In this document: piece after piece, positions 4,227 to 13,226 of the stretch
Position numbering within the stretch: position 1 is the first letter of the stretch
How the letters are laid out: each line of letters opens with the position of its first letter
Source of the DNA: an uncultured Neisseria sp.
GTDB lineage: Bacteria > Pseudomonadota > Gammaproteobacteria > Burkholderiales > Neisseriaceae
Assembly: GCA_963552075.1 (NCBI GenBank)
Contig: CAUVJL010000001.1
Coordinates: forward strand, 394-64,393
DNA: 64,000 nucleotides
Direction of reading: 5' to 3'
Program-made: the position numbers and the translations under genes
The notes under the pieces: model-generated
What the model was told of the DNA's origin: nothing
Databases searched by the model: none
Seen by the model: only the letters and a program-made list of their open reading frames with translations

Positions 4227-4272
4227 AAAGGTCGTCTGAAAACGCAAATTCAGGTTTTCAGACGACCTTTTC
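4227..4272. terminator. DUS-pair hairpin terminator
   Basis: AGGTCGTCTGAA at 4229-4240 and TTCAGACGACCT at 4257-4268. This is the last host-dialect DUS before position 12014. Confidence 0.7.
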
Positions 4273-4325: not shown

Positions 4326-4970
4326 TCAACGTTTAAAATTCGACTTCTCCTTAAATTCCGTTCCGACAAACGTCCGTTTCGGATTGCCGCGCTCCACCTG
4401 ATAAAGCTGGCTGTGCTGTGCGCGGGCGTAATCGTCGGTCTGTCCGGCATGATGTTCCGCCAGCTTTTGCGCCAGCAGGGTCAAAGCCAATTTTTTGTTG
4501 GCATGCTGACTGCGTTCGCTTTCGACCCGTACGGAAATACCGCTTGCCTTATGAGTGGCACGGACGGCACTTTCAGTTTTATTGACGTGCTGCCCGCCTT
4601 TGCCGCCCGAACGGCAGGCTTGAAACTCAATTTCGCTTCCAGACGGCATTTCAGGCATATCGGGCATGCGGAAAACGCCGATATACCAGTTTTTGCGCGG
4701 ATGTTTCGGACGGACGGTGCTGGCGCACACCCATTGGAGCGAACCTTGCCAACGCCGTGCCAGAGTTTCGGCATGCTTGCCGTCCAATTTAAGCACCGCC
4801 GACATAATGCCGTGCTTATCGGCGGTTTCGGAGATGATTTCCACCCCGACACCTTCCGCCTTCGCCTCGGCAAGCAGCCTGCCCAATACGAAACGGGCAA
4901 AGATGCGGCATTCGGCAGGCCCTTGAGCGGTGGAAATTTGCAGATAAATTGTTCGCATATTTTGCTTCAT
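4326..4970 (-). CDS. prfH: peptide chain release factor H (PrfH)
   Basis: RF-like protein with GGQ motif (SGGKGGQHVNKTESAV). Start chosen at MKQNMRTIYLQ, with GGAG 7 nt upstream. Lies directly downstream of the rtcB-family ORF. Confidence 0.8.
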   Translation of the reverse strand: MKQNMRTIYLQISTAQGPAECRIFARFVLGRLLAEAKAEGVGVEIISETADKHGIMSAVLKLDGKHAETLARRWQGSLQWVCASTVRPKHPRKNWYIGVFRMPDMPEMPSGSEIEFQACRSGGKGGQHVNKTESAVRATHKASGISVRVESERSQHANKKLALTLLAQKLAEHHAGQTDDYARAQHSQLYQVERGNPKRTFVGTEFKEKSNFKR

Positions 4971-4972
4971 AT

Positions 4973-5737
4973 TTATTCTCCACATCCGCCGCTGGTTTTG
5001 TAAGTCAAAACGGGTTTGAAGCGGGCGACCAATTCAATCAAACCGGCGTTTTTCATGGCTGAAATGACGCTGTCTATGCTTTTATAAGCCTGGGGAGCTT
5101 CTTCAAAAATCAGAGTCTTATCCTGACAAACGACCACACTGCCGAATGCGGTTTGGCGTAAGCTGTCGGCGGAATATTTGTGCGACAGCCTGCCTTTGCA
5201 TTCGCCGCGTTGCCACTTCCGTCCTGCGCCGTGTGCCAATGTATTCAGCGAAATTTGGCAATCTTGGTTCGGCAGAACCAGATAGCTGTAATCGCCGCGC
5301 GAGCCGGGTATCATCACCAGACCTTTATCGGCGGGCGTTGCGCCTTTTCGGTGCAGCCAGCCGGTTTGTCCCGCGATTTCGGTTTGTTCGAGGAAATTGT
5401 GATGCACGTCGAGCAGGCATTCGCCTTCCGTGCGCCAGCGGTCGAGCATTCTGGCGGCAATCAGACGGCGGTTTAAACGGGCGAACTCAAGGGCTGCCTG
5501 ATGTTCGGCAAGATAGTCCGCCGCAGCCACGCTGCCTTCCGCCAAACCTCGATGGCCGTAGGCTTCGATGTGGCGTTGCAAAATCTGCTGACCCAGTCCG
5601 CGCGAACCGCTGTGTACCAACAATTGCAAACGGTTTGAATCAAAGGCAGCGGGAAGCAAATCGTCGCGGTAAACGGTTTCAACGGTTTGCAATCGCGATG
5701 CCGTCAACCGCGCCCTTGCCGCGCGGGACAACGACAT
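4973..5737 (-). pseudogene. rtcB: RtcB-family RNA ligase, 5'-truncated remnant
   Basis: The ORF starts only about 40 codons before the HSGSRGLG motif. It keeps the C-terminal AHGAGRKW region but lacks roughly the first third, including the GGGNHF-type motif that normally precedes HSGSRG. Confidence 0.65.
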
Positions 5738-5912
5738 GCTGGTGCATTACGAACGGCTGGGGGAAGCCGCCGCGCTCTCCGTGCCGTCGCCCGAACACTA
5801 CCTGCCGCTGCTCTACACCGCCGCGCTGCGCGAACCGCAGGACGATATGGAAATATTCAATGACGAACTCGCCTTTGGCTCAATCAGCATGACTTCCGTT
5901 TTGATAGGGTAA
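5673..5912 (+). pseudogene. C-terminal fragment of a YgiD-type 4,5-DOPA dioxygenase extradiol
   Basis: Frame 0 reads ...ARDNDMLVHYERLGEAAALSVPSPEHYLPLLYTAALREPQDDMEIFNDELAFGSISMTSVLIG*. This matches only the last 60-75 residues of the YgiD family, and no N-terminal part is present. Confidence 0.5.
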
Positions 5913-5930
5913 GAGACCATGACAAAATAA

Positions 5931-6134
5931 CGCGGGTCGGAACCCCTACGCGCCTGCCCAAAAGCCCGCTACGAAGACGGCTTGGACACGGCAAAATTGG
6001 ACGTGTTGGCCGACGTATTGCGACAAATCGGCTGCACGCAGGCAGCAGAAATTCTGACCGAACCCGCCGCCGAAGCGCAAGCCAAGCAGCGCATTGCCGA
6101 AGGCACAGATTGCTTCGGACAGTTTGGGCACTAA
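5931..6134 (+). pseudogene. fragment of a DsbA/HCCA-isomerase-like thioredoxin-fold protein
   Basis: Reads ...ARYEDGLDTAKLDVLADVLRQIGCTQAAEILTEPAAEAQAKQRIAEGTDCFGQFGH*. This resembles the internal to C-terminal part of DsbA/FrnE/HCCA isomerase proteins. It has no start codon and stops prematurely. Confidence 0.35.
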
Positions 6135-6213
6135 CCGCCATTGTGCTGATGGTTTCCAGCAACCGATCCGCCGAAGGAAAAGGACTAGGGCGAAAGCAGT
6201 ATCGCCCAAACGC

Positions 6214-6255
6214 AAAAGCAGCCTGCACTTTGAAATTGAAGTGCAGGCTGCTTTT
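6214..6255. terminator. hairpin built from AAGCAGCCTGCA (king3-type DUS) pair
   Basis: AAGCAGCCTGCA at 6216-6227 and its reverse complement at 6242-6253, loop CTTTGAAATTGAAG, flanked by A and T runs. Sits immediately after the LysR stop. Confidence 0.7.
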
Positions 6256-7122
6256 TCATATTGCCGACAAGTGTTCCAATGCCTCCGCGAAGTAATCCGC
6301 CACCGCCCTGACGCTGGGGCTACGGCGTACGTCTTCGTGCATCACCAGAAAGAGTTCTGCTGCGAATTCAGGTAGCGGGGCATCTGGATTGAGTGAGACG
6401 GGATGCAGCCTGTCGGCAGGGAAAACAGCGAAATCAGGCAGAATACCGATGCCGATTTGTTCGCACACGGCTTGTTTGACAGCGGCGAAGTCGTTGCTGG
6501 CGAAGGAAATGTCGGCATCTTCGCCGATTTGTTCGGCAAACCAGCGGGAAAAACGGGTGTTTACGGCAATTTGTACAAAACGCCAGTTTTCGCGGCGGAT
6601 GGTTTTCAGGTAGCCTTCATGGCCGTAGATGCGGTAGGAGAAATGGGCGATACGGCGCACGGCAAGGTCGTTTTGGGTGGGACGGACGAGGCGCAGAGCG
6701 ATGTCGGCTTGGCGACCGTGCAGGTCGGCGAGTGCGGCATCGCTTTGAATAATAAGGCGTATATCGTTGTGTTTGCGGTAGAAATCGGCAATGTGGGGCA
6801 TCAGCAGGAGTCGGGCGACGAATGGCGGTGCGGAAATGACGACGCTGTGCCGCAGCTCGGCCTGTTCGCGCGCGGTACGCTGCAACATGCTCATATCTTT
6901 GCAGATTTCGCAGGCATGGCGGTAAAGCCGTTCGCCTTCGGGGGTGAGCAGGTAGCGTTTGCCGATGCGGTCAAACAGGCGCAGGCCGAGTGCGTTTTCC
7001 AGCTGGGCGATTTGCCGCGAAACGGTGCTGTGCTGCACGTCTAGGTGTTCGGCAGCGGCGGTAAGGGTTTGTTTTTCCACAAGGGTGGTGAAGTGGCGGA
7101 TGCCGTTCCAGTCCCAATCCAT
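6256..7122 (-). CDS. LysR family transcriptional regulator
   Basis: N-terminal HTH (IRHFTTLVEKQTLTAAAEHLDVQHSTVSRQIAQLE) plus a LysR substrate domain. Start chosen at MDWDWNG (7122) within ORF 6256..7161. Confidence 0.85.
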   Translation of the reverse strand: MDWDWNGIRHFTTLVEKQTLTAAAEHLDVQHSTVSRQIAQLENALGLRLFDRIGKRYLLTPEGERLYRHACEICKDMSMLQRTAREQAELRHSVVISAPPFVARLLLMPHIADFYRKHNDIRLIIQSDAALADLHGRQADIALRLVRPTQNDLAVRRIAHFSYRIYGHEGYLKTIRRENWRFVQIAVNTRFSRWFAEQIGEDADISFASNDFAAVKQAVCEQIGIGILPDFAVFPADRLHPVSLNPDAPLPEFAAELFLVMHEDVRRSPSVRAVADYFAEALEHLSAI

Positions 7123-7181
7123 TATTGCTTCCTTTGTGCATTTTTTGGCTGTGTTTGCCAATTTATCTTATTTTCGTGTTT

Positions 7182-7196
7182 TTATAAACGGTATAA
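7182..7196. promoter_or_regulatory. candidate LysR box (T-N11-A palindrome)
   Basis: TTATAAACGGTATAA in the divergent LysR/DUF2798 intergenic region. Confidence 0.25.
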
Positions 7197-7229
7197 ACTG
7201 CACGATATGGATTTTTTGAGGGGAGCGAG

Positions 7230-7460
7230 ATGAAAAAATTGCCGAAAAAATACGCGGGCGTACTGTTTTCTTTTTACGCTTCGACGGTGATGGTGCTGAT
7301 TGTGAGCGCGGTGCTGGTGGCGCTGAATACCGATATCGACGCGGGCTACCTGCAGCGCTTGTTGAAATCATATTTGATTACTTGGCCGGTGGCATTCGCC
7401 AGCCTGCTCGGCGTGCGGCCGTTGGTGGTGAAATGGGTGGCGGCTTCGGTGGCGGATTGA
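7230..7460 (+). CDS. DUF2798 domain-containing small membrane protein
   Basis: 76 aa, two TM segments. The sequence pattern (KKYAGVLFSFYASTVMVLIVS...ITWPVAF) is typical of DUF2798. Divergent from LysR. Confidence 0.65.
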   Translation: MKKLPKKYAGVLFSFYASTVMVLIVSAVLVALNTDIDAGYLQRLLKSYLITWPVAFASLLGVRPLVVKWVAASVAD

Positions 7461-7471
7461 GGCTACCTGAA
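7460..7471 (+). repeat. AGGCTACCTGAA (eik-type DUS dialect)
   Basis: Exact 12-mer overlapping the DUF2798 stop codon. Confidence 0.6.
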
Positions 7472-7510
7472 AACATGAATAAAGCAGTGACAACCCTAAT
7501 TGCATCAAAG

Positions 7511-7522
7511 TGCAGGCTGCTT
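7511..7522 (-). repeat. AAGCAGCCTGCA (king3-type DUS), single copy
   Basis: TGCAGGCTGCTT on the + strand. Confidence 0.6.
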
Positions 7523-7652
7523 TCAGTTTCACAAAAGCTCCGCTTTTCATAGACAAACTAATATTGTTTTTAAATTTCAGACGGCTGAATACAGCCAAAA
7601 GCTCCTCTGAAAACCAGCCTTTATTTACCAACCTTGCAGACAGGAGACACAC

Positions 7653-8333
7653 ATGTCCGACAAACCCATTCTCTACGTTGTAACCAGCAATGCCGTTAAA
7701 GGTGCAAGCGGCCAGCCCACCGGCTTTTGGTTGTCCGAACTCACGCACCCCATGCACGAAACCGAAGCCGCCGGGCACCGAAGCGAAATCGCCACCATCC
7801 GAGCCGGAGTCGCCCCCGTTGATGCCGACAGCCTGAATATGGATGACCCCGTGAACGCCCATTACTGGCAGCAAACTGACCTGCAACAACGTTTGCAAGC
7901 TGCGCCCGGGCTGGGCGGTCTGAACGGCGCGGACTATTCCGCCATTCTGTTTACCGGCGGCTACGGTACGATGTGGGATTTCCGCGAAAGCCTTGACGCG
8001 CAACGCCTTATCCGCGAAGTGTACGAAAACGGCGGTATCGTTGCCGCCGTCTGCCACGGCCCTGCCGCGCTGGTGGACGCGAAACTTTCTAATGGCGAAT
8101 ATCTGGTCAGCGGCAAAAACGTTGCCGCTTTCACCAACGCCGAAGAAGAAGCAACGGGCGGAGCTAAAATCGTCCCCTTCCTGCTGGAAACCGCGCTCGT
8201 TGAACACGGCGCAAAACACCATGCCGCGCCGAACTGGGCGGAAAACGTGGTGGTGGACGGCCGTCTGATTACCGGTCAAAATCCGGCATCCGCCAAAGGC
8301 GTAGGGGTGGCGTTGGCAAAGGCATTGGGTTGA
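7653..8333 (+). CDS. DJ-1/PfpI family type 1 glutamine amidotransferase-like protein
   Basis: 226 aa. Has the AAVCHGPAAL nucleophile-elbow cysteine motif typical of DJ-1/PfpI/HchA-like proteins. Confidence 0.85.
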   Translation: MSDKPILYVVTSNAVKGASGQPTGFWLSELTHPMHETEAAGHRSEIATIRAGVAPVDADSLNMDDPVNAHYWQQTDLQQRLQAAPGLGGLNGADYSAILFTGGYGTMWDFRESLDAQRLIREVYENGGIVAAVCHGPAALVDAKLSNGEYLVSGKNVAAFTNAEEEATGGAKIVPFLLETALVEHGAKHHAAPNWAENVVVDGRLITGQNPASAKGVGVALAKALG

Positions 8334-8342
8334 TGAAGTGAA

Positions 8343-8385
8343 AAAAGCAGCCTGCACTTTGGAAATTGAAGTGCAGGCTGCTTTT
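8343..8385. terminator. hairpin built from AAGCAGCCTGCA pair (bidirectional)
   Basis: 12-mers at 8345-8356 and 8372-8383. Nearly identical to the 6214-6255 element, including the loop. Lies between the convergent DJ-1 and MarR genes. Confidence 0.7.
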
Positions 8386-8417
8386 TATTGTGCCGACTTT
8401 ATGTTTTCAGACGGCCT

Positions 8418-8915
8418 TCACGTTTCCAAAGCCCCCAACCACGCCGCCAATCCTTGTTCGAGTTGCGTGCGGGTGTCCGCATCCAGCTTTTCCAGCAGCC
8501 GCTTTTCGTTTTCCACATGCGGGAACACGGCTTTTTCAATCAATTCTTCACCTTTATCTGTCAGGCGGACCAGCAGGCTGCGGGCATCGTCCGGGTTGGG
8601 CAGGCGGTCGATTAAGCCTTGGTTTTCCAGATTTTTCAGGCGCGTGGTCATGGTGCCGGACGTTACCATCAGCGATGAGAACAACTCGGTCGGGGTCAGC
8701 GTATAAGGCGCGCCGCTGCGGCGCAGGGTGGCAAGCACGTCGAACGAGCCTTCGGTTAAACCGTATTCTCCGTAAACTTTTTCCAATTCGCGCGCGATGA
8801 CGGCAGCGGCGCGTTTCAGACGGCCGATTAACAGCATATTTTCGGCGGCCAATTCAGGCAGCTCCTGCTTCCATTGGGCAACGGCGTGGGCGGCTGCATC
8901 AAGGTGTTCGGTCAT
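8418..8915 (-). CDS. MarR family transcriptional regulator
   Basis: 165 aa with a winged-HTH region (SFDVLATLRRSGAPYTLTPTELFSSLMVTSGTMTTRLKNLENQGLI). Confidence 0.85.
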   Translation of the reverse strand: MTEHLDAAAHAVAQWKQELPELAAENMLLIGRLKRAAAVIARELEKVYGEYGLTEGSFDVLATLRRSGAPYTLTPTELFSSLMVTSGTMTTRLKNLENQGLIDRLPNPDDARSLLVRLTDKGEELIEKAVFPHVENEKRLLEKLDADTRTQLEQGLAAWLGALET

Positions 8916-8952
8916 AGAATGCTCCGTTCGGTTTAAATGGCGATTATTTTAT

Positions 8953-8997
8953 CTTGACCTCAAGCTAATCTCCATTTATATTTAACTTGAATTCAAG
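8953..8997. promoter_or_regulatory. two CTTGA-NN-TCAAG palindromes (candidate MarR operators)
   Basis: CTTGACCTCAAG at 8953-8964 and CTTGAATTCAAG at 8986-8997, 33 bp apart, in the MarR/nitroreductase divergent promoter region. Confidence 0.45.
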
Positions 8998-9018
8998 ATA
9001 ATTTTGCTGGAGAAAACC

Positions 9019-9684
9019 ATGTTTGCCGATAAGCAAGCCGTTTTAAACGCCTTCCGTTTCCGCCACGCCTGCAAAAGTTATGACGCGGCGAAGAAAATCC
9101 CTGCCGATGATTTCGCCTATATTCTGGAAACCGCACGCCTGTCACCCAGCTCGTTCGGGCTGGAACCTTGGCGGTTTTTGGTGGTGCAGAACCGTACTCT
9201 GCGCCAAGAGTTGCGCGGCATTGCATGGGGCGCGGCGGAAAAAATCATGGATTGCAGCCATTTTGTGATTTTGTTGGCGCGCACGCAGGCTGCCATGCAG
9301 GCGGATTATGAAGAAAAAATCTGGGGCGGCGTGCATGGAATGCCGTCTGAAACCGTTGGAATGATGCAAAAATTTTTCAAACAGTTTGCCGAAACCGATT
9401 TTGCCATTGCCGATAATCCGCGCTCGTTTAACGACTGGGCAGCCAAGCAAACCTATATCGCGTTGGCAAACATGATGACTGCTGCCGCTTTGATTGGTGT
9501 GGATTCCAAGCCGATTGAGGGCTTTCAAAAGGAAAATGTGGAAAAGTTGCTGTCCGGCAAAGGCTTCATCAATCTTGACGAATACCGCGTCAGCGTCATG
9601 GCGGCGTTTGGCTATCGCGCAGGTGAACCCAAGCGCGCCAAAACGCGGCAGGCAGTAGAAGATGTGGTTGATTGGATTGAATAA
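9019..9684 (+). CDS. NAD(P)H-dependent nitroreductase family oxidoreductase
   Basis: Nitroreductase-fold signature (RHACKSYD...LETARLSPSSFGLEPWRF). Start chosen at MFADKQ, with GGAG upstream. Confidence 0.85.
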   Translation: MFADKQAVLNAFRFRHACKSYDAAKKIPADDFAYILETARLSPSSFGLEPWRFLVVQNRTLRQELRGIAWGAAEKIMDCSHFVILLARTQAAMQADYEEKIWGGVHGMPSETVGMMQKFFKQFAETDFAIADNPRSFNDWAAKQTYIALANMMTAAALIGVDSKPIEGFQKENVEKLLSGKGFINLDEYRVSVMAAFGYRAGEPKRAKTRQAVEDVVDWIE

Positions 9685-9825
9685 ACGCCTGAAAATCAGC
9701 AACACAGACATTCACCAGTTGGCAAAATCAAGAGTTTTTACCGATGACAGCCTGCGCTTGAATGAAGAAGAAGGTTTCCGTCGGGGCAAATTTTCCACCC
9801 GCTTATTCATTTATTTGGAGGACTT

Positions 9826-10290
9826 ATGCGCTTACACTATTCCCAATATGCCCTTGAAAGCTATAAGGCACTGCTGGCTTTGGAAGCCAGCCTCACGCTG
9901 GATAGTACCCTGAAAGATTTGGTGAAACTGCGTGTTTCGCAAATCAACGGCTGCGTTTTTTGTGTCGATATGCACGTTAAAGAGGCCAAGCTGCACGGCG
10001 AGCGCGAACTGCGCCTGCACCATTTGGCCGTTTGGCACGAATCAACCCTGTTTACCGAAAAAGAACGGGCCGCGCTGCAATGGGCGGAAAGCCTGACCCG
10101 CATCTCCGAACAAGGTATCCGCGATGCGGACTACGCAGCGGTACGCGCCCATTTTGATGAAGAAGAACTGGTGGCGTTGACCCACGTCATCAACACCATC
10201 AACGTTTGGAACCGCCTGAACGTGGCTTTTGCCACCCCGGCAGGCAGCATGGACGGTCTGATGGGATTGGAGAAGGCAGGGCTGGTTTAG
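9826..10290 (+). CDS. carboxymuconolactone decarboxylase (AhpD-like) family protein
   Basis: 154 aa. CxxC-type motif NGCVFCVDMH typical of AhpD-like/CMD proteins. GGAGG RBS. Confidence 0.85.
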   Translation: MRLHYSQYALESYKALLALEASLTLDSTLKDLVKLRVSQINGCVFCVDMHVKEAKLHGERELRLHHLAVWHESTLFTEKERAALQWAESLTRISEQGIRDADYAAVRAHFDEEELVALTHVINTINVWNRLNVAFATPAGSMDGLMGLEKAGLV

Positions 10291-10316
10291 CCTGGCCTAC
10301 AAGCCGAACGTGCAAA

Positions 10317-10361
10317 AAAAGCAGCCTGCACTTTGCAAAACCCAAGTGCAGGCTGCCTGAA
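10317..10361. terminator. hairpin from AAGCAGCCTGCA / TGCAGGCTGC, the second arm reading through as AGGCTGCCTGAA
   Basis: 12-mer at 10319-10330. The inverted arm at 10347-10356 runs into AGGCTGCCTGAA (10350-10361, sim-type dialect). Lies between the convergent CMD and SnoaL-like genes. Confidence 0.65.
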
Positions 10362-10378
10362 ACCCATCGGGCTTCGCT

Positions 10379-10741
10379 TTATGCGGCGTTGTTGTTCATC
10401 GTCCAGCAGTCGGTGATTTTGCCGTCTTTGACTTTCAGGAAATCTGTGCCGACTTTGACGGCGGTTTTGTCGCCGAGCGTGGCGGTAACGCGCCAATAGG
10501 CGGAAATCATGTCGCCGTCGCAAAACGGGCCGAGCACGAGTTCGTAATGCAAATCGGCTTTGGCGCGGATGGTGGCAATCCAAGCCTTCGCGCTGGCAAT
10601 GTCGGTAACGGGTGCGGGCGGCGGGGTGGAGTCGGCGGTCAGGTGCGCTTTGAAATGGGGCGACAACAATTCGTCGGCAATATCAAGATGGCCGTTCCAC
10701 ATCTGCGTCCATGCGGTGTAGATTTTGTGTGCGTCGGTCAT
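10379..10741 (-). CDS. SnoaL-like / NTF2-fold protein
   Basis: 120 aa with the size and pattern (IYTAWTQMWNG...DCWTM) of SnoaL-like ester cyclase/NTF2 proteins. Confidence 0.55.
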   Translation of the reverse strand: MTDAHKIYTAWTQMWNGHLDIADELLSPHFKAHLTADSTPPPAPVTDIASAKAWIATIRAKADLHYELVLGPFCDGDMISAYWRVTATLGDKTAVKVGTDFLKVKDGKITDCWTMNNNAA

Positions 10742-10851
10742 GTTTTATCTCCTAATGTATTGGATTACAATGAATATCGCTGCCTGGCGGCTGTGCCATA
10801 ATGCGGTGAAACGAAGCTGCCGTCAAGGCGGGGCGGCGAAGCAATAAGGCT

Positions 10852-10920
10852 TTCAGACGGCCTTCGGACAGATATTCAGGCCGTCTGAAAGGCTACCTGA
10901 AACTTTAAAAGCAGCCTGCA
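10852..10920. repeat. stack of three DUS dialects
   Basis: TTCAGACGGCCT at 10852-10863 and AGGCCGTCTGAA at 10878-10889 form a hairpin. AGGCTACCTGAA follows directly at 10890-10901, and AAGCAGCCTGCA at 10909-10920. Confidence 0.7.
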
Positions 10921-10943
10921 CCCAAAATCGCAGTAAACCCCAA

Positions 10944-10985
10944 AAGCCCTCTCCCCAGCCCTCCCCCACAGGGGAGGGAGCAGGT
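10944..10985. repeat. GC-rich REP-like palindromic element
   Basis: CCCTCCCC-CACA-GGGGAGGG hairpin at 10959-10978. It translates as the ...SPVGEGWGEG... pseudo-peptide that is common for such intergenic repeats. Confidence 0.4.
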
Positions 10986-11109
10986 TGGTACAGCCCCACC
11001 GTCTGCCGCACAAAACCCAAGTGCAGGCTGCCATCGGTCTGATTTTTTGATTCAGCCAACCGATGTGCGTGCCTGCGATGCTGCCTTTGCCCCATCACAC
11101 ATCCTGTTT

Positions 11110-11135
11110 TTCAGACGGCCTTCAGGCTACCTGAA
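11110..11135. repeat. TTCAGACGGCCT followed by AGGCTACCTGAA
   Basis: 12-mers at 11110-11121 and 11124-11135, just upstream of the EamA start. Confidence 0.6.
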
Positions 11136-11163
11136 AAACGCCACACACAAAAGAAAAACCGCC

Positions 11164-12024
11164 ATGCCCAACCGCACCGCTGCCATTTTCACCACCGCGA
11201 TTGCCCCGCTGATTTGGGGCAGCACCTATCTGGTTACCACCGAATTTCTGCCGCCGGACCGACCGTTTACCGCCGCGCTTATCCGTGTTTTACCCGCCGG
11301 GCTTTTGCTGTTGGCGTGGACGCGGCGGATACCTAAACGCAGCGAATGGCCGACGGTTGTTTTGCTCGGTTTTTTAAACATCGGCTTTTTCCAGGCCATG
11401 CTGTTTGTGGCGGCGTATCGCTTACCGGGCGGACTGGCGGCGGTATTGAGTTCGACGCAGACGCTGATGGTGCTGGTGTTCACTTGGTTAATCGGCAAAA
11501 CCATGCCGCCCAAAGCGGCTTGGGCTTGGTCGGCGGCAGGGGTTTTGGGGATTGCGCTTTTGGTTTTGTCGCCGCAGGCGCGCTATGACGGGACGGGTAT
11601 TTTGGCGGCATTGGCGGGCGCGGCGGCGATGGCATTAGGCGTGTATTTGTCGAAACACCGCCGCACTTCGCTGCCCGTGTTGGCGTTTACCGGCTGGCAG
11701 CTTTTCATCGGCGGATTGTTTTTACTGCCCGTCGCCCTGCTTGCCGAGCCGCCGCTCGAATCTTTAAGCCCCGCCAATATCGGCGGCTATCTGTATTTGA
11801 GCCTGTTTGGTGCCGTATTGGCTTATGTGTTGTTTTTCAGAGGAATTGCTAAACTTTCACCTGCTGCGGTTTCGTCGCTGGGATTGCTCAGCCCTGTCTC
11901 GGCATTTATCTTGGGCTGGCTGTTTTTAGGGCAAGGGATGGATGCGAAGTCGCTGGCGGGATTTGCGTTGGTGTTGGTATCGATATTCGGGGTGCAGCGG
12001 GCAGTCATGAAAAAGGTCGTCTGA
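11164..12024 (+). CDS. EamA/DMT family transporter
   Basis: About 10 TM segments with two EamA-like halves. Start chosen at MPNRTAAIF (11164) within ORF 11047..12024. The stop codon lies inside a host-type DUS. Confidence 0.85.
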   Translation: MPNRTAAIFTTAIAPLIWGSTYLVTTEFLPPDRPFTAALIRVLPAGLLLLAWTRRIPKRSEWPTVVLLGFLNIGFFQAMLFVAAYRLPGGLAAVLSSTQTLMVLVFTWLIGKTMPPKAAWAWSAAGVLGIALLVLSPQARYDGTGILAALAGAAAMALGVYLSKHRRTSLPVLAFTGWQLFIGGLFLLPVALLAEPPLESLSPANIGGYLYLSLFGAVLAYVLFFRGIAKLSPAAVSSLGLLSPVSAFILGWLFLGQGMDAKSLAGFALVLVSIFGVQRAVMKKVV

Positions 12025-12068
12025 AAACAGCCTTGAAGCCTTCAAGCTGCGTTTTCAGACGACCTTTT
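12012..12068. terminator. DUS-pair hairpin terminator (bidirectional)
   Basis: AGGTCGTCTGAA at 12014-12025 and TTCAGACGACCT at 12054-12065. Confidence 0.7.
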
Positions 12069-13069: not shown

Positions 13070-13226
13070 TATAGTGGATTAAATTTAAATTAGGACAAGG
13101 CGACGAAGCCGCAGACAGTACAGATAGTACGGAACCGATTCACTTGGTGCTTCAGCACCTTAGAGAATCGTTCTCTTTGAGCTAAGGCGAGGCAACGCCG
13201 TACTGGTTTAAAGTTAATCCACTATA
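13070..13226. mobile_element. Correia repeat-enclosed element, full length (157 bp)
   Basis: TATAGTGGATTAAATTTAAAT...TTTAAAGTTAATCCACTATA terminal inverted repeats with the canonical Correia core. Confidence 0.9.

Follow-up and report, generated by a model that had tools for sequence, protein, structure and literature searches.

We analysed a 64,000-nucleotide stretch of an uncultured Neisseria genome (GCA_963552075.1, contig CAUVJL010000001.1; hereafter the window), in which DNA uptake sequences (DUS) of three dialects stand side by side within 69 bp (positions 10852–10920). This stack is probably a persistent scar of serial transfer between the dialect groups of the Neisseriaceae. Its three dialects, AG-DUS, eikDUS and king3DUS, are all foreign to the host, whose own word is AG-mucDUS (mucDUS or muc below). 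The stack was inherited as a block within an imported segment that has one illegitimate and one homologous end, and its modules recur elsewhere. It is baggage that came with imported mosaic DNA, an ordinary result of such import, rather than a device that this genome made or uses.

A first-pass annotation, made from the letters of the window, had reported the AG-DUS inverted pair, the eikDUS and the king3DUS of the stack, and a second AG/eik doublet downstream of it. Every 12-mer was found where it had been reported (Table 1). The annotation had named disagreement with the recognised dialects as one way in which it might fail; on exact comparison, its AG, eik and king3 12-mers are identical to the published dialect words. 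For this comparison, the words were derived by applying the position-wise descriptions in the text of Frye et al. 2013 (PMC3630211) to the AG-kingDUS, AG-simDUS and AG-mucDUS printed in Hughes-Games et al. 2020 (PMC7371117). The window contains eight exact matches to AG, four to eik and seven to king3, where shuffled sequences give an expectation of 0.00–0.01. The text of Frye et al. assigns AG-mucDUS to N. mucosa (ATCC 25996), N. sicca and N. macacae, eikDUS to Eikenella, and king3DUS to K. kingae and K. denitrificans. Our own counts, made in a family sample of 176 genomes, showed 1300–3149 copies of eikDUS in all ten genomes of the group labelled g6 and 1390 in G003, and 2731 copies of king3DUS in G028. 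The standing of AG-DUS as the primary word of some lineage follows the account in Frye et al. (PMC3630211).

Table 1 Coordinates of the DUS stack, the imported segment and neighbouring features in the window.
Feature	Position	Strand	Description	Basis
AG-DUS inverted pair	10852–10863 and 10878–10889	(−) and (+)	Hairpin with 14-nt loop; TTCAGACGGCCT at 10852–10863, AGGCCGTCTGAA at 10878–10889	Exact match
eikDUS	10890–10901	+	Zero gap to the AG(+) arm; AGGCTACCTGAA	Exact match
king3DUS	10909–10920	+	7 nt past eikDUS; left end of the 125-bp element; AAGCAGCCTGCA	Exact match
Second doublet	11110–11121 (AG-DUS) and 11124–11135 (eikDUS)	(−) and (+)	Hybrid inverted pair with spacer TC	Exact match
Imported segment	5693–11450 (right end approximate)		~5.8 kb	Comparison with G082 and G028
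Left junction	5685–5700		Illegitimate join inside RtcB; G082-like to ...GGTTTGCAA, then G028-like	
Last mucDUS inverted pair before the gap	4229–4268		muc 4229(+), 4257(−)	
First mucDUS inverted pair after the import	12014–12065		muc 12014(+), 12054(−)	
125-bp element	10909–11033		king3DUS to an inverted near-copy at 11022–11033, which differs at the first two bases	
42-bp motif	10946–10987		CCCTCTCCCC...GGGGAGGGAGC; core of the 125-bp element; dispersed repeat family	
Tail of dispersed element	11020–11135		Ends in the hybrid pair AG-DUS(−) 11110–11121, TC, eikDUS(+) 11124–11135	
SnoaL-like gene (120 aa)	10379–10741	−	Adjoins the stack	Pfam SnoaL_2, E = 2.8e-8
Promoter-like site of the SnoaL-like gene	10798–10826	−	TTGACG, 17 nt, CATTAT	Consensus match only, 9/12
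EamA-family transporter gene	11164–12024	+		Pfam EamA, E = 7e-39

The host genome (G000; 2.64 Mb in 190 contigs, 51% G + C) contains 2806 copies of AG-mucDUS, 197 of AG, 35 of AT, 27 of king3, 13 of sim, 13 of king and 12 of eik. The first-pass annotation was thus right that three dialects stand side by side, and it had missed that all three are foreign to a genome with these copy numbers. The mucDUS is regularly spaced across the window except between 4268 and 12014. Among 2618 within-contig gaps (median 580, 99th percentile 4831), this muc-free gap of 7757 bp ranks 7th in size, and the 17 DUS inside it include no muc: seven are king3, four eik, four AG, one AT and one sim. Of all copies in the genome, 7 of 27 king3 and 4 of 12 eik therefore lie in this gap. 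Those king3, eik, king and sim sites that lie elsewhere are likewise grouped in a few short stretches on other contigs. Two further mixed stacks were observed in the host. At C55:1290–1358, king(−), 3 nt, muc(+), 8 nt, king(−), 10 nt and eik(+) follow one another within 69 bp, and at C9:22495–22554 a native muc(+)/muc(−) pair encloses a king3(−) in its loop. An exact eikDUS was found at least once in 151 of the 176 family genomes, with 0 or 1 match per strand to the reversed-word control in each genome; almost the whole family thus carries foreign dialects at a low level.

The limits of the import were located by comparison with two other genomes. The closest relative found, the muc speaker G082 (2906 muc), is collinear with the window up to 5692 at 95.6% identity, then has ~10 kb of different content up to the EamA gene, and so lacks 5693 to ~11450. 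No shared homology was found at the left junction when the window, G082 and G028 were compared there. Because this junction cuts RtcB, the RtcB open reading frame (ORF; 4973–5737, minus strand) matches only positions 160–425 of the 426 of its profile. On the right, identity to G082 measured in 60-nt windows is 67–92% for starts at 11163–11400 and 93–100% for 11430 to 12029, the rise falling at ~11430–11470. The EamA gene holds this right, homologous junction: its 5′ ~290 bp are imported and the remainder is native. One homologous and one illegitimate end are what transformation by homology-facilitated illegitimate recombination would leave, judged from the end product.

The import comprises genes for a LysR regulator, DJ-1/PfpI, MarR, a nitroreductase, a CMD/AhpD-like protein and a SnoaL-like protein (Pfam), together with the spacer rich in DUS and the initial ~290 bp of EamA. 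No mobility genes were recognised with Pfam among the ORFs scanned in it. The muc-free stretch also includes a PrfH-like RF-1 gene, the truncated RtcB and the EamA transporter (Pfam). The PrfH-like RF-1-domain gene (4326–4985, minus strand) adjoins RtcB; since the junction at 5692/5693 truncates RtcB, the RtcB/PrfH pair is probably broken in this strain. Beyond the import, window 13070–13226 is a ~157-bp element that is missing at this site in G082 and has many 97–99% copies in the host and its relatives. We take it to resemble a Correia-type miniature element.

The same stack is present in G028, a king3 speaker of another genus with 62 eik and 46 AG copies beside its 2731 king3. G028 is collinear with window 5694–10926 at 94.8–98.1%, and carries the identical AG(−)/AG(+)/eik(+)/king3(+) stack as well as the same eik, AG and AT copies as the window. 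The stack therefore came in as one block and was not assembled here; its build-up in situ is ruled out by the identical stack within the 5.2-kb collinear match. The match to G028 stops at 10926, 6 nt past the king3DUS, so that one break in similarity does coincide with a DUS. The first-pass annotation had offered successive recombination end-points, each leaving the terminal DUS of a donor behind, as an origin of the stack. That suggestion was right in kind and misplaced for this genome, which received the stack en bloc within ~5.8 kb and in the form also found in G028. Because the stack was imported ready-made, the layering occurred earlier, in other lineages.

Further copies were found in other dialect groups. 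G034, a king speaker (king 2600), has the same layout, with the whole spacer and EamA at 91–93%; in it the eik copy of the stack is changed by one base and the second doublet has decayed. Window 9748–12005 is matched in G034 (L013) as one block of SnoaL gene, spacer and EamA at 91%. In the initial ~90 bp of EamA, G034 is 92–95% identical to the window as against 67–88% for G082, and beyond this the two are comparable until ~11430. The block in G034 suggests that there may have been an unsampled donor in common, or a re-export of the joined block to a third dialect group. In the muc speakers G069 and G091 (L004 and L005), an insertion sequence lies inside the AG-DUS(+) arm at 10883; its end reads GAGACCTTTGCAAAA and is followed by a transposase-like ORF. 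The SnoaL-like gene next to the stack has 93–98% DNA identity to copies in nine genomes (G028, G069, G091, G114, G033, G008, G039, G109 and G034), and copies in G115 and G116, whose loci contain mucDUS, have 82%. By primary dialect, carriers of the cassette are muc speakers (G000, G069, G091 and G109), a king3 speaker (G028), king speakers (G033, G034 and G039) and an eik speaker (G008).

The modules that make up the stack recur across the family. The zero-gap AG(+)eik(+) 24-mer (10878–10901) gave 26 matches in 13 of the 176 genomes, namely six of the ten g6 genomes, five other g1 genomes, G028 and the host. These fall into about 9–11 separable flank contexts, and the doublet nearly always forms the right-hand side of a hairpin, opposite a left arm of eik(−) or AG(−). 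Five eik-speaking g6 genomes, which hold 40–79 AG-DUS each, showed AG(+)-to-eik(+) gaps of 0 nt (15 cases), 1 nt (2), 2 nt (3) and 22–30 nt (5), with none of 3–21 nt; the spacers of 1–2 nt are all A. The 15 zero-gap matches are made up of three orthologous sites over five related genomes, so the independent events are few. In these five genomes the doublet lies behind an eik(−) arm at L015, L016, L017, L019 and L021, and behind an AG(−) arm at L018 and L020. A mirror form, AG(−), 2–5 nt, eik(+), AG(+), was found in g1 genomes at five of the eight eik + AG loci fetched.

These five g6 genomes contain 40 hybrid AG(−)/eik(+) pairs, 24 of them with a loop of 2–3 nt. The 26-mer of the second doublet in the window (11110–11135) is identical in the eik speaker G008 (L031), where it has a homologous left flank, so that the doublet is the end of a dispersed element. 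At the corresponding position elsewhere, there is a single mucDUS on host contig C110 and a muc(−)/eik(+) pair in G011.

An eik(+) followed by a king3(+) within 20 nt was found 84 times in 32 of the 176 genomes. By matched length, 63 of these 84 have spacers of 6–8 nt and 11 a single A; the g6 genomes hold 32–133 king3DUS each. The layout X(+)eik(+), 7 nt, king3(+) is also present in G008 (L019) and, with X = muc, in G074 (L051). A single conserved mobile unit behind eik-N7-king3 was considered and rejected, as the spacers differ from locus to locus.

The predicted fold of the 125-bp element that begins with the king3DUS (−47.4 kcal/mol, z = −3.7) has an outer stem of 11 bp and, inside it, a CCCTCCCC/GGGGAGGG hairpin. 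G034 shares this element, and a degenerate copy (84% identity) is located after EamA in G011. In this eik speaker (L053, C12:983–2108), the EamA homologue has 81% identity and is preceded by the muc(−)/eik(+) hybrid pair; after EamA comes a degenerate eik, 7 nt, king3 block, 84% identical to window 10889–10987. The same modules therefore lie on the opposite side of EamA there. The 42-bp motif has many short matches across the family, with arrays ~280 bp apart in G129, G074 and G047. In the host it is found on C52, C55, C63, C65, C110 and C125, with copies ~0.4–1.9 kb apart on C63 and C65.

A degenerate scan of the family for zero-gap direct doublets of DUS-like 12-mers gave 221 matches in 82 of the 176 genomes. 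The reversed-pattern control gave five matches, all in G149, where they (4 + 1) probably reflect a simple repeat. Among the 150 matches listed, a hand tally found identical 12-mers in only 10 (AG+AG 7, muc+muc 2, sim+sim 1) and two different published dialects in ~74; the remainder include a one- or two-base variant. By our own arithmetic, ~3000 uniformly placed copies of a primary word would be expected to form one or two doublets of that word in each genome, and the scarcity of such doublets is the reverse of what copy numbers predict. Within 40 nt, the host has eight direct muc-muc pairs as against 702 convergent inverted pairs; uniform placement would give ~60 direct pairs, again by our arithmetic. 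A doublet of the form "sim+X" is equally well described as a hybrid inverted pair, king(−)/X(+), whose loop is GAA, and some of the doublets counted are therefore ordinary inverted pairs. The loops of native (−,+) muc pairs (modal length 11–12 nt) were considered as decayed foreign DUS, and this was rejected: 81 loops were heterogeneous and not DUS-like.

The first-pass annotation had proposed asking whether mixed pairs are enriched over chance, and genome-wide in the host they do exceed free placement. Mixed pairs within 20 nt number 29 compared with 13.2 ± 3.4 under uniform placement, and those whose partners differ at three or more bases number 14 compared with 3.0 ± 1.6. Pairs in which, in addition, neither partner is muc number eight, compared with an estimated ~0.1 if freely placed. 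A spacer-restricted simulation gave a mean of 3.1; this value is inflated, its crude ORF mask having held three of the eight observed pairs fixed, and is of qualitative use only.

A stepwise history probably accounts for the stack. DUS lie at the ends of genes and elements, and each cross-dialect exchange would set a foreign DUS unit beside a resident one. The AG hairpin and the abutting eik arm would have been joined in an eik speaker; the AG+eik form is commonest in eik-speaking genomes and so was probably made there. The AG+eik unit would then have come beside a king3DUS in a king3 speaker. The block would then have entered a muc speaker, perhaps aided by the four AG-DUS that it carries, which are one base from mucDUS; the muc-speaking host took in ~5.8 kb of stress and detoxification genes, stack included. 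Same-dialect direct neighbours would be rare because they recombine out or never form, and mixed ones, sharing little homology, would persist. The mixed-pair bias is most simply explained as such survivorship.

Several points weigh against this reading of the stack as a scar of serial transfer. When the 15 spacer DUS of this stretch, of four dialects, were placed 5000 times at random in its 1568 bp of spacers, 16% of the trials brought three dialects together within 69 bp, and 4.8% produced at least three mixed pairs with a gap of 8 nt or less. Permuting the dialect labels among the 297 non-muc DUS gave 6.6 ± 2.2 pairs compared with the eight observed (P = 0.33). Given the density of foreign DUS in the spacers, the local stack is only weakly improbable, and from the placement and permutation results the excess in the host stems from foreign DUS packed in short spacers of imported DNA. 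Such packing leaves the family-wide mixed-pair bias and the sharp spacings unexplained. The order of events (AG, eik, king3, muc) is drawn from where the modules are commonest and not from a rooted tree. The family counts include orthologous sites of related species, and independent events are fewer than matches; the loss of same-dialect neighbours is something that we infer. The exact donor is absent from the genome collection, in which the imported 5′ end of EamA is at best ~90–95% like G034. Finally, a passive scar does not predict the sharp spacings (0 nt; 6–8 nt) in detail.

It is conceivable, though doubtful, that a dedicated mechanism made these junctions. DUS hairpins would then be the end-points of recombination tracts, where incoming single strands fold or are cut, and arms would be joined at fixed registers in the order native(−), loop, foreign(+), native(+). 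Such joining would fit the AG+eik doublets of the five eik-speaking g6 genomes (behind eik(−) at five loci and AG(−) at two), the all-A spacers of 1–2 nt, and the 2–3 nt loops in 24 of 40 hybrid pairs. The mirror form at five of eight g1 loci may fit as well. A precedent in transformation is the Ssn single-strand nuclease, described in the text of PMC11893778 as acting on a hairpin repeat, the NTS and not the DUS. Survivorship of non-homologous neighbours would, however, give the same bias, and the "sim+X" doublets may be king(−)/X(+) pairs. To our knowledge there is no known enzyme or cut site at DUS, which also speaks against such a mechanism. Taken family-wide, the idea would make mixed junctions a regular product of tracts ending and joining at DUS hairpins in fixed registers, and bilingual tags that aid cassettes across the dialect barrier of the oral Neisseriaceae; we regard this generalisation as speculative. 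Its fixed-register forms would tentatively be a zero-gap foreign(+) native(+) behind native(−), the hybrid pairs of 2–3 nt, and the 6–8 nt arrangement of eik to king3.

It is unlikely that the stack was kept by selection because it promotes its own transfer, as would be the case if multi-dialect cassettes entered more species and spread preferentially. The identity of the adjacent SnoaL cassette (93–98%) over four primary dialects accords with such selection, as do the exact DUS 12-mers that are intact in G000 and G028, neither of which is an AG or eik speaker, and the sharp preferred spacings hint at constraint. Nevertheless, the stack lacks mucDUS and is found in a muc speaker, and two eik copies have decayed in G034, which is what the absence of selection would predict. 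Imported fragments typically span kilobases, and several DUS could serve a single fragment without abutting. According to the text of Frye 2013, recipients were transformed best through the dialect that they themselves use and hardly at all through distant dialects, which favours selection in that a matching DUS would count. On the other side, the two muc-speaker strains tried there were not transformable. In the same study AG-mucDUS reached 36% of AT-DUS in N. meningitidis and 4% in N. elongata. The first-pass annotation had suggested that stacking would let recipients of different dialects take up the fragment; the occurrence of the SnoaL cassette in genomes of four primary dialects is compatible with this. 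Uptake in several dialects is a possible by-product of the stack and not a demonstrated function.

A regulatory or structural role is improbable; under it the hairpins would act as insulators or transcription terminators ahead of the SnoaL promoter, and it would be incidental that they are DUS. The AG pair does form a strong predicted hairpin (10845–10925; −29.8 kcal/mol, z = −3.9, on the plus strand, and −33.8 kcal/mol on the minus strand with a second eik/king3 stem), and the stack starts 26 nt upstream of the promoter-like site. The AG(−)/eik(+) pair (11100–11145) is predicted to fold at −16.4 kcal/mol (z = −4.3), with three mismatched positions in its hybrid stem. The text of a 2025 preprint (bioRxiv 10.1101/2025.10.24.684340) places most inverted-repeat DUS in predicted terminators. 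In the window, however, no T-run follows the AG hairpin on either strand, the terminator-like matches of the scan lie away from both pairs, and the DUS-bearing spacer lies between two divergent gene starts, with no gene ending in it. As a terminator of a flanking gene, the stack was rejected on the same grounds, both neighbours starting here and diverging. That independent DUS simply fell together in the spacer is very improbable, in spite of the 16% of random placements, because the AG(+)eik(+) 24-mer, the eik-7 nt-king3 layout and the AG(−)TC eik(+) 26-mer are met again at further loci and in different genera, the gaps are distributed far from evenly, and reversed-pattern controls are close to zero.

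DUS dialects are regarded as a barrier confining transformation to a species group. The small cassette described here crossed at least four dialect groups at 93–98% identity, bearing the words of several groups side by side. Hundreds of abutting pairs across the family, overwhelmingly mixed and with preferred spacings, provide a cheap, sequence-only read-out of where and in what order DNA moved. They raise the question of whether DUS hairpins are preferred end-points of recombination tracts. If hairpin joining were true, DUS would be recombination landmarks besides uptake signals, and the junctions a log of cross-dialect transfer.

No description of abutting, nested or hybrid mixed-dialect DUS was found in searches of the open full-text literature (supplements excluded), including PMC3630211, PMC7371117 and the 2025 preprint. 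The open text of Frye 2013 is without "adjacent" or "more than one dialect", and that of the preprint is without "hybrid", "tandem", "co-occur" or "multiple dialects". The first-pass annotation was not aware of any description of multi-dialect DUS arrays, and within these texts this holds for the abutting architecture; the wider idea of recognising imported islands and their donors by DUS of ancillary dialects was already published (PMC7371117). The family-wide architecture of mixed-dialect junctions is, in our view, modestly new.

The known systems closest to the stack differ from it in several respects. The 12-mers of the window are the AG, eik and king3 words of Frye 2013, and the host groups given in its text fit the copy numbers counted here. 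That text treats dialects as properties of genomes and low counts of other dialects as traces of transfer, and its Table 1 (PMC3630211) gives data on single dialects only, whereas abutting and hybrid pairs are found here. In the text of Hughes-Games et al. 2020 (PMC7371117), gaps in the primary DUS together with DUS of ancillary dialects mark imported islands and their donors, and islands with a single ancillary dialect are stressed. Like those islands, the stretch studied here is without the primary DUS of its host, in an outlier gap; other dialects are over-represented in it; it is absent from a close relative; and its dialects point to a donor group. Unlike them, it does not have a single dialect that names the donor but five dialects, is ~5.8 kb long without mobility genes in the scanned ORFs, and has stacked and hybrid DUS. 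The AG pair and the AG/eik pair fold into hairpins, as do the inverted-repeat DUS terminators described in the text of the preprint (bioRxiv 10.1101/2025.10.24.684340). The pairs here differ from those in lying between divergent gene starts, in having no T-run, and in that one pair is hybrid.

Minimal mobile elements of Neisseria are variable cassettes between conserved flanking genes. Similarly, the content between RtcB and EamA differs between G000 and G082, the one relative compared, and has no recognisable mobility genes. In contrast to those elements, only the right flank was exchanged by homology here, and the illegitimate join on the left truncates RtcB. Homology-facilitated illegitimate recombination in natural transformation is known from the Acinetobacter and pneumococcus literature. 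The import shows the same arrangement of one homologous anchor (EamA), one non-homologous join (RtcB) and foreign DNA between them, a product from which we infer the process.

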